From Shigella phage SH7, in sequence record KX828711: a DNA stretch of 64,000 nucleotides. One strand, 5' to 3'. Position 1 is the first letter of the stretch; every line of letters begins with the position of its first letter. Position numbers and translations under genes: made by a program. The notes beneath the pieces were generated by a model that saw only the letters and a program-made list of their open reading frames with translations, was not told where the DNA came from and made no database searches. Below, piece by piece: positions 34,629 through 35,319 of this stretch.

Positions 34629-34657
34629 TAAAAAGCCCCAACCTTTCGGCTGGGGCT
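34629..34657 (-). terminator. rho-independent terminator with GAAA loop; copy 2 of the 33-nt direct repeat
   Basis: Near-identical to 34075-34102 (3 mismatches); hairpin followed by UUUUU on the minus strand. Confidence 0.7.
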
Positions 34658-34708
34658 AAGCCTTGCGGCAACCTTGTCGGGGTTCCACCTGCTAAGGCAA
34701 GTGTTTGT

Positions 34709-34800
34709 ACGAAACGCCGGGATTCGAACCCGGTTACCAAGCAGTTGACGCTACTCAATATTTTTAAAAGGCCATATCTCGACCATATCCGAACGTTCCG
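34709..34800 (-). ncRNA. tRNA-like stable RNA candidate (acceptor stem plus T-arm, no anticodon arm, no CCA)
   Basis: Minus-strand CGGAACG pairs with CGUUUCG around a canonical T-arm CCGGG-UUCGAAU-CCCGG; lies in a 315-nt ORF-free interval. Confidence 0.35.
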
Positions 34801-34968
34801 TCAAAAACGCTACTCGGCTTACGGCAAAGATATTTCCTCGAATCGATAATTCGGTGCGCCGTTTCTGCTGTGATATAAGGGGACATTAACAGATCGTAAA
34901 GATTTGTTAATGCCAGTCCTTAAACAGGGAACATCAGTCCGACGACTTACCGGTAGCGACCCGGTTTC

Positions 34969-35319
34969 TTAATATTCTTTTAAAGCATCAATCTGTTCAC
35001 GACGTTTACGCCATAAATCAATTGCTTCATACGCAGATTCAGCATTTCGAATTGGACGGCATTTATATAAAGACTTGTGATTTTGATATTGCGTAGATAA
35101 CGGAATTTTATCTAAAAGGTCTTTACGTTCAAAGTATTCGTAACCATCTAAGCCAAATGAACGATTTTTGAGAAATTGCCAATGACCATATTCGTTTTCG
35201 ACATAAACATAATCCGCGTGTTGATAAAGCAAATTAATTACACGTTCAGAAATAATAGTGTCATTGTGATTAAAATAAAATGTTAAATCATGAACTACTA
35301 AATAAACATTACCTTTCAT
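34969..35319 (-). CDS. hypothetical protein downstream of tRNA-Arg
   Basis: 116-aa ORF beginning 17 nt after tRNA-Arg with a GAGGA RBS. Confidence 0.5.
   Translation of the reverse strand: MKGNVYLVVHDLTFYFNHNDTIISERVINLLYQHADYVYVENEYGHWQFLKNRSFGLDGYEYFERKDLLDKIPLSTQYQNHKSLYKCRPIRNAESAYEAIDLWRKRREQIDALKEY

Follow-up and report, generated by a model that had tools for sequence, protein, structure and literature searches.

What kind of RNA lies at the 3' end of the transfer RNA (tRNA) operon of Shigella phage SH7? The window analysed here is a 64,000-nucleotide (nt) stretch of this phage (KX828711), and all elements concerned are on its minus strand. Its tRNA genes (n=11; Gln, Leu, Gly, Pro, Ser, Thr, Met, Tyr, Asn, His and Arg), called by ARAGORN with default settings and by Rfam at the gathering score, run from 36357 to 35336. 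A preliminary description had flagged a structured stretch between the open reading frame (ORF) that follows them and a terminator, and had suggested that it may correspond to the stable species 1 and 2 RNAs of phage T4. Alignment with the T4 genome (NC_000866), in which rnaC and rnaD are annotated, and with annotated relatives bears out this identification. T4 rnaD ("species 2 RNA", T4s002, 71171-71053) aligns with window positions 34972-34853, and T4 rnaC ("species 1 RNA", T4s001, 71046-70908) with positions 34846-34708, the latter over its full length and with 135 of 139 nt identical. The order of elements is that of T4 (tRNA cluster, rnaD, rnaC, terminator): rnaC stands at the distal end of the tRNA operon, with rnaD upstream and the terminator (34657-34629) downstream. 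The flagged stretch closes a T-even-type tRNA operon at its 3' side, comprising the rnaD and rnaC orthologues, a structured trailer and the operon terminator; what had been presented as a single element is two RNAs with a spacer and a trailer. The minimum free energy (MFE) is -48.8 kcal/mol for rnaC (z -3.06 versus shuffled sequence) and -36.0 kcal/mol for rnaD (z -2.80). Both RNAs are already known: their discovery in T4 dates from the 1970s, and the T4 reference genome carries an annotation for each. The T4 primary transcript, of ~1.75 kb, crosses the tRNA cluster and terminates after the species I gene (PMC2330249); RNAC and RNAD accumulate late in infection, and RNAC has been validated by northern blot (PMC9697503).

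The fold of rnaC was approached by comparison of homologues, 31 distinct ones that represent at least eight phage lineages; GenBank contains ~800 in all. They derive from Tequatrovirus/Mosigvirus-type phages, Karamvirus, Moonvirus, Kanagawavirus, Gelderlandvirus, Marfavirus, Citrobacter phage Ursula and metagenomic contigs. In T4 numbering (rnaC nt 1 is window position 34846), the fold that we term Model A consists of P1 (nt 2-8 with 131-137), P2 (nt 9-11/76-78, 14-19/68-73 and 22-24/63-65), P3 (nt 30-58), P4 (nt 89-110) and a T arm (nt 114-130). Covariation shows rnaC to be a cloverleaf-like four-way junction built of P1, a long P2-P3 arm, an 8-bp P4 arm and a canonical T arm. When 25 sequences are aligned with plain MAFFT, 90.6% of the Model A cells are paired versus 34-44% in controls with slid partners, and 22 pairs are changed on both sides versus 11.3 in shuffles (0/500); with the kissing helix described below and all 31 sequences, the count is 27 versus 17.0 (0/500). 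A U-to-C change at nt 135, in the 3' strand of the acceptor, is always matched by A-to-G at nt 4 (AU 14/GC 11 in the 25 sequences), and the full set of 31 holds to the same rule with zero exceptions (AU 14/GC 17). The unconstrained MFE structure of the window rnaC is also Model A. We favour this fold because of the covariation, the compensation between nt 4 and nt 135, and the unconstrained MFE. The comparison supports the prediction that the strand CGUUUCG pairs with the 5' end of rnaC itself, CGAUUCG, and not with CGGAACG. The rnaC fold, kissing loop included, may not have been described before.

The helices differ in how they vary. P1 has five Watson-Crick pairs and two central, invariant U.U mismatches, and it starts 1 nt after the annotated T4 5' end; its third pair is AU in 14 and GC in 17 sequences, four pairs are invariant and a fifth is C-G in 30 of 31. 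P2 (helix 2) is 90.5% paired with 8 of its 12 pairs changed on both sides, the inner helix of P3 is 93-96% paired with 6 of 7, and P4 is 94-95% paired with all 8. The sequence of the P3 helix is wholly different in the VPA32, L013, Marfavirus and Gelderlandvirus copies. The GG of the AA/GG internal loop in the P2 arm is invariant across at least eight lineages, with CIP9 as the sole exception. The T arm CCGGG-UUCGAAU-CCCGG at 34733-34717, followed directly by CGUUUCG at 34716-34710, is present as the preliminary description claimed, and the resulting 24-mer is unique in the window (chance expectation, 0 matches even at three mismatches). The middle pair of the T stem is GC in 14, UA in 14, AU in 1 and UG in 1, and variation of the T loop is limited to the equivalents of tRNA positions 57 and 59. 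The T loop is broken (UGCAUGC) in one rnaC copy alone, that of Enterobacter phage CIP9 (Kanagawavirus; L103 318-460), which is also the only one in which G74 of the otherwise invariant GG beside P2a is changed to C; this double oddity could mean that the GG touches the T loop as in the elbow of a tRNA, or just that the copy is in decay. A pairing of the rnaC 5' end with the T loop (AUUCGA with UCGAAU) was considered and dropped, as C7 is invariant and a G-to-A change of the loop in four sequences is uncompensated. The hairpin CGAAUUAUCGAUUCG (34852-34838), listed earlier among the local structures, proved peculiar to the window, since its second base is a different one in T4, ATK47, L009 and L010; it extends across the spacer between rnaD and rnaC, and what serves as its 3' strand is in fact the 5' strand of P1.

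A further contact is suggested by the terminal loops of P3 and P4. The two hexaloops are complementary at six of six positions in 31/31 sequences, so that the putative kissing helix is 100% paired. Both loops are invariant in 28 of the 31; the three Marfavirus copies read UUGGCG and CGCCAA and keep the pairing. Complementarity of six for six would arise by chance about once in 4,096 (Watson-Crick pairs only). On this suggestive pattern, the P3 and P4 hexaloops probably form a 6-bp kissing loop.

How close, then, is rnaC to a tRNA? The acceptor/T-arm module proposed earlier is real, with its 5' strand supplied by the rnaC 5' end and not by CGGAACG. As had been stated, no CCA is encoded, the tail being CGUUUCG-UACAA. 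The claim that there is no anticodon arm holds only in part: that position is occupied by P4 (34758-34737), an arm of 8 bp with a loop of 6 nt. rnaC has neither a D arm nor a 7-nt anticodon loop. With default settings, ARAGORN called no tRNA at rnaC (its 11 tRNAs lie elsewhere in the window) and no transfer-messenger RNA (tmRNA); at a relaxed threshold it reported a "tRNA-?" with an 8-nt loop and poor stems. The Rfam scan at the gathering score returned only the 11 tRNAs and matched neither rnaC nor rnaD, and at E up to 10 it gave noise and a weak match to the tRNA-like domain of tmRNA. That tmRNA match, the best for rnaC, covers the acceptor and T arm only (14.7 bits against a gathering score of 47; E 7e-4). 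A covariance model (CM) of rnaC scores true homologues at 103-168 bits, and the next matches, at 17-25 bits, are nearly all ordinary tRNAs; three of these were checked with ARAGORN, and all are tRNAs. Descent of rnaC from a co-resident tRNA was rejected, as its similarity to the 11 tRNAs of the window is confined to the T loop and falls within the shuffle range. In Karamvirus and Gelderlandvirus, rnaC is flanked by tRNA-Trp and tRNA-Gly as a further tRNA gene might be, the spacers are short and A/U-rich, and rnaD is not nearby. The Marfavirus rnaC copies (L100, L101 and L111) end in CGUUCCG-U-CCA-A, with the CCA in the exact register of a tRNA, where T4-type copies have U-ACA-A; one may ask whether CCA-dependent enzymes act on the Marfavirus RNA or on the ancestral one.

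rnaD lacks a T arm and does not resemble a tRNA. Among T4-type phages, ~47 nt at its 5' end and ~22 nt at its 3' end are nearly invariant, and its central hairpin varies in sequence between lineages with the pairing retained. The hairpin CCGG-GUCGCUA-CCGG at 34964-34950, noted earlier, is real; its closing pair covaries (AU 9, GC 5, GU 2). The long-range stem that joins the two ends is invariant in 16 T4-type sequences, and in Citrobacter phage Moon and L013 it reads GUCGUCC with GGGCG.CA, that is, one G-C pair has become C-G. These two are divergent rnaD-like elements found within tRNA arrays, in Moon (L012 791-888, minus strand; CM 26 bits, E 9e-5) and in a PEi20-like phage (L013 5997-6091, minus strand; 17 bits, E 0.02), and because of them rnaD is spread more widely than BLAST suggests. 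The Moon element has a different hairpin, CCAUGA[GACG]UCAUGG, at the place of hairpin 1, which differs in L013 too; the L013 element ends 2 nt 5' of tRNA-Asp. A pairing of the rnaD hairpin-1 loop with UAGCG of rnaC was dropped, as the loop differs in the Moon copy. When phage BW1 was adapted to ECOR34, all lines gained the same single-nucleotide polymorphism (SNP), in rnaD (PMC12685909); this is the only experimental hint of a host-related role.

How might these RNAs be made, and what might they do? On the T4 literature, both would be excised from the long tRNA-cluster transcript to give stable RNAs of ~120 and 139 nt, probably by the tRNA-processing machinery of the host. The spacer between rnaD and rnaC is presumed to be an endonucleolytic processing site, and RNase E is the candidate enzyme, being given in the older literature as the one that cuts the precursor of species 2 and species 1 in this AU-rich spacer and makes the 5' end of species 1; short A/U-rich spacers also occur 5' of rnaC after tRNA-Trp or tRNA-Met in other genera. 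Taken jointly, and leaving function aside, the identity, biogenesis and fold given here are in our judgement highly probable. In the folded rnaC, P1 would stack on the T arm, with P2-P3 in the place of the D arm and P4 in that of the anticodon arm, and the P3/P4 kissing loop would tie the distal loops together and lock the body of the RNA, which could confer nuclease resistance or stability. The molecule would mimic the "top half" of a tRNA (acceptor and T arm), unable to decode or be charged. It might engage a host or phage factor that reads this half, be it an enzyme that processes or modifies tRNAs or a defence factor directed at them, and act as a decoy, sponge or scaffold. We offer this function, a top-half mimic that engages an acceptor/T-arm-reading factor, only tentatively. 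The fuller version, in which a mimic locked by its kissing loop serves in trans as decoy, sponge or scaffold for a minihelix-reading host factor and rnaC and rnaD are host-range accessory RNAs, is doubtful as a whole. Candidate partners in it are a tRNA-directed anti-phage nuclease or transferase, RNase P, TruB, TrmA and the CCA-adding enzyme, and a host-range role would fit the patchy presence in Tevenvirinae and the convergent rnaD SNP on ECOR34. We also hypothesize, as was suggested before, that rnaC could be a substrate or decoy of RNase P.

Several points weigh against the overall reading of biogenesis, fold and function. T4 deletions of the tRNA region grow on laboratory hosts. Neither RNA is indispensable, since rnaC is missing from SHP1 and TH44 and rnaD from Karamvirus. 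The mature ends for SH7 are taken over from the T4 annotation. P1 contains two invariant U.U mismatches and a single covarying pair, effectively one evolutionary event, and the kissing loop draws its support from one lineage-level double change and from invariance. CCA-dependent partners are unlikely because the window rnaC has no CCA. The roles of both RNAs were called unknown in 2010, 2022 and 2025 (PMC3014915, PMC9697503, PMC12685909).

Other explanations locate the meaning of the sequence elsewhere. Model B, built on the acceptor stem of the preliminary description, pairs CGGAACG with CGUUUCG and adds weak D and anticodon arms; rnaC would then contain a degenerate tRNA of 93-94 nt, with a weak anticodon arm around CCUUUUAAAA and P4 as a long variable arm, and the 46 nt at its 5' end would form a leader that RNase P could remove. 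The complementarity itself stands (CGGAACG at 34800-34794; six Watson-Crick pairs and one G.U, the span of 34709-34800 given for it being off by one), and the 7 bp are real in T4-type sequences. ARAGORN calls exactly this structure as tRNA-Lys(ttt) in G4500 and finds the window copy at a relaxed threshold, the annotation is present in GenBank records, and the Rfam tmRNA match used the CGGAACG 5' strand. The comparative data nevertheless speak against an acceptor stem here. Not one of its pairs is changed on both sides, and the acceptor, D and anticodon helices are almost without compensatory change. At 49-135 (T4 numbering) the U-to-C change of the 3' strand leaves an A.C mismatch in 9 of 25 sequences, where nt 4 compensates in 25 of 25. 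The stem is broken in five divergent copies (VPA32, fGh-Ecl04, L013 and Marfavirus), and CGGAACG is part of the P3 loop and 3' strand, whose helix, with 6 of 7 pairs covarying, Model B excludes. Forcing the stem on the window sequence raises the folding energy from -48.8 to -35.5, a cost of 13.3 kcal/mol; the D and anticodon stems are poor, and the annotated T4 RNA has 139 nt, not 93. We rejected the CGGAACG/CGUUUCG acceptor on covariation and folding energy, and regard Model B as highly improbable. Small proteins are a still more remote explanation, one to which we give almost no weight. The transcribed strand of the flagged stretch had been described as free of ORFs, which does not hold in the literal sense: mechanical minus-strand ORFs of 40 amino acids (aa; 34886-34764) and 53 aa (34758-34597) exist, and many GenBank records carry "hypothetical protein" annotations at this place. 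Their start codons are unconserved, however, ATG becoming ATA in the ATK47 type and TGG in the L007 type, and Karamvirus copies, which start directly after a tRNA, read AUG UAG. Substitutions are compensatory in helices and do not follow codon position; no Shine-Dalgarno motif was seen, although none was sought.

Two further explanations accept the RNAs as such and contest their role. Acting in cis only, rnaC and rnaD would be processing or stability punctuation at the operon 3' end (entry for RNase E or RNase P, or a block to 3' exonucleases), and the excised RNAs would be by-products. Both RNAs are always inside or at the end of tRNA clusters, tRNA-like elements are established processing signals elsewhere, and one or the other RNA is missing from some relatives, all of which would suit such a role. 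Yet the Karamvirus rnaC sits in mid-array, where neighbouring tRNAs already provide processing sites, and a separate trailer and terminator already give 3' protection; hexaloops and a GG that stay invariant across at least eight lineages exceed the needs of a punctuation signal, and the RNAs reach northern-detectable levels late in infection (PMC9697503). We consider a role confined to cis unlikely. It is also quite improbable, in our view, that one or both RNAs, rnaD in particular, regulate host or phage mRNAs in trans by base pairing, for which conserved single-stranded segments, GUUCCCUG of rnaD for example, would serve. In favour, rnaD has invariant stretches that are predicted to be unpaired, its 5' and 3' core is common to the distant Moon and L013 elements, and the convergent SNP arose on adaptation to a semi-permissive host (PMC12685909). 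Against this, our analysis identified no target, and the hexaloops of rnaC are complementary to each other, which argues for an internal contact rather than an external target.

Coordinates of the features are collected in Table 1.

Table 1. Features at the 3' end of the SH7 tRNA operon, in order of transcription (window positions)
Feature	Position	Strand	Basis or remark
ORF, 116 aa	35319-34969	-	After tRNA cluster, directly before flagged stretch
rnaD (species 2 RNA) orthologue, ~120 nt	34853..34972	-	T4 alignment (L002 554-672); CM R2 136 bits
rnaD hairpin 1, A-CCGG[GUCGCUA]CCGG-U	34949..34965	-	RNAalifold: four invariant pairs and covarying closing pair
rnaD long-range stem, 5' strand GUCGUCG	34940..34946	-	Predicted to pair with 34861-34854; RNAalifold, MFE
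rnaD variable central hairpin CAUUAACA...UGUUAAUG	34882..34914	-	MFE and lineage comparison
rnaD long-range stem, 3' strand CGGCG(C)AC	34854..34861	-	Adjoins rnaD 3' end; RNAalifold, MFE
A/U-rich spacer GAAUUA, 6 nt, as in T4	34847..34852	-	Gap between T4 annotations
rnaC (species 1 RNA) orthologue, 139 nt	34708..34846	-	T4 alignment; CM R1 163.5 bits
P1 5' strand CGAUUCG, acceptor-like	34839..34845	-	Pairs with 34716-34710; covariation, in MFE
P2-P3 arm	34769..34838	-	P2a AGG/CCU, AA/GG internal loop, P2b AUAUCU/AGAUAU, P2c, P3 hairpin
P3 hairpin CCG[AGU]AGCGUUU-UUGACG-GAACGUU-CGG	34789..34817	-	Covariation
P3 hexaloop UUGACG	34799..34804	-	Candidate kissing partner of 34750-34745; complementarity
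P4 arm, 8-bp stem UUGAGUAG/CUGCUUGG, hexaloop CGUCAA	34737..34758	-	Anticodon/variable-arm position
P4 hexaloop CGUCAA	34745..34750	-	Complementary to P3 hexaloop
T arm CCGGG-UUCGAAU-CCCGG, tRNA-type T loop	34717..34733	-	Sequence and covariation
P1 3' strand CGUUUCG	34710..34716	-	Abuts T stem as in tRNA, U-ACA-A follows; homologue comparison
3' trailer, hairpins CACUUGC-CUUA-GCAGGUG and GCC-GCAA-GGC	34658..34707	-	Kept even in phages without rnaC
Intrinsic terminator of tRNA/rnaD/rnaC operon	34629..34657	-	10-bp stem, GAAA loop, U tract; sequence

The terminator of the preliminary description was found, at 34657-34634 plus a U tract. Within the trailer (34658-34707; T4 L002 ~340-405), CCCCGAC is a direct repeat of the terminator 5' strand CCCCAGCC (in T4, CCCCGACC), and this upstream copy could, by its sequence, pair alternatively with the terminator 3' strand. 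The 116-aa ORF between tRNA-Arg and rnaD matches phrog_3355 and no Pfam family; its stop codon (34971-34969) overlaps the inferred rnaD 5' end, and T4 has no ORF there. For the flanking ORFs, PHROG families of unknown function were the sole matches, and Pfam gave none.

The distribution of the locus was followed with several searches. BLAST of a 401-nt region against GenBank phages matched 805 records, and in 677 of these the match covers 80% of the query or more; almost all of the records belong to T4-like phages of Escherichia, Shigella, Yersinia, Salmonella and Enterobacter. Two rnaC motif scans of 185,579 bacterial and archaeal genomes gave no match. The loose motif TTCGAGGA...GGTTCRAATCC found 75 loci in viral contigs, nearly all chance matches on ordinary tRNAs, and only the T4-like ones scored with the CM; a metagenome scan added 17 loci, mostly near-identical copies. 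An apparent second rnaC-like element in Moon (L012 1073-1188) turned out to be tRNA-Gln and part of tRNA-Asn. In Salmonella phage SHP1 (Dhakavirus; L005 ~815-830), rnaC is precisely absent and the rnaD 3' end ..GGCGCACCGAA joins the trailer CACUUGCC.. directly. Escherichia virus TH44 (Gaprivervirus; L006 813-1330) retains rnaD, trailer and terminator, with rnaC replaced by ~120 nt of unrelated sequence and a 127-aa ORF (935-1318), the N-terminus of which resembles the 157-aa ORF (34583-34110, phrog_2280) downstream of the window terminator. Karamvirus has rnaC and lacks rnaD. The existence of phages with rnaC only and with rnaD only argues that the two RNAs are independent modules.

Annotation of the locus is uneven. 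rnaC is annotated at the homologous place only in a few records (T4, RB3, RB59 and ATK47). Spurious tRNAs called inside rnaC, namely a 94-nt tRNA-Lys(ttt) in G4500 (L104 473-566) and G4507 and a 95-nt tRNA-Met(cat) in L014 (8491-8585), have now entered GenBank annotation. The rnaC/rnaD locus is often given as one or two "hypothetical protein" coding sequences, sometimes with a ribosome-binding site, as in Marfa, EI (L111 316-453), HMGUkp2 (L101), NM4.3 (L105 242-415) and Ursula (L106). Mis-annotation as hypothetical proteins, tRNA-Lys or tRNA-Met is widespread, and neither RNA has an Rfam family. What is new here is the corrected comparative secondary structure, the candidate kissing loop, and the notes on mis-annotation and distribution. 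The comparative fold offers concrete targets for mutation: the true acceptor partner, the covarying helices of P2, P3 and P4, the two invariant and complementary hexaloops, and the Marfavirus variant that carries a CCA.

Comparison with known systems places the two RNAs more closely. The 5' and 3' ends of T4 rnaD are nearly identical to those of the window, with the same hairpin 1 and the same long-range closing stem, whereas the central hairpin differs in sequence, with compensating changes. T4 rnaD starts 2 nt after the CCA of tRNA-Arg, while in the window the 116-aa ORF separates the tRNA-Arg gene from rnaD and the rnaD 5' end overlaps the stop codon of this ORF; given these different contexts, formation of the 5' end may differ. 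T4 rnaC shares with that of the window its position after rnaD and before the operon terminator, and its predicted fold; of the four substitutions in the window, one (C66 for U) falls in P2 and the other three in P4, where G.U pairs preserve the helix.

With canonical tRNA (RF00005), rnaC shares a T arm with a GGUUCGAAUCC-type loop (5-bp stem, UUCRANY), a putative 7-position acceptor-like stem contiguous with the T stem, the topology of a four-way junction, the location in a tRNA array and, in the Marfavirus copies, a CCA in register. It departs from tRNA in its length of 139 nt, in having no D arm, no 7-nt anticodon loop and, here, no CCA, and in its two acceptor U.U mismatches, large P2-P3 insertion and loop-loop contact. 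Acceptor/T-arm geometry is known to engage tRNA-binding enzymes without decoding in YrlA (a Y-RNA-like RNA), in the 3' tRNA-like structures of plant viruses and in mascRNA. The termini of YrlA lie in a Ro-binding stem, and the viral structures are 3'-terminal with pseudoknotted acceptors, topologies unlike that of rnaC. No other tRNA mimic rose above noise in the Rfam scan (E up to 10), a 17-nt T-arm match to mascRNA-menRNA having E 6.8. The tRNA-like domain of tmRNA (RF00023) has G3.U70, CCA, a tag reading frame and tmRNA-type pseudoknots, all of which rnaC lacks (its third pair is A-U or G-C), but the two would be alike in plan: in both, the termini of the RNA form an acceptor beside a T arm, and a large domain foreign to tRNA is inserted between them.

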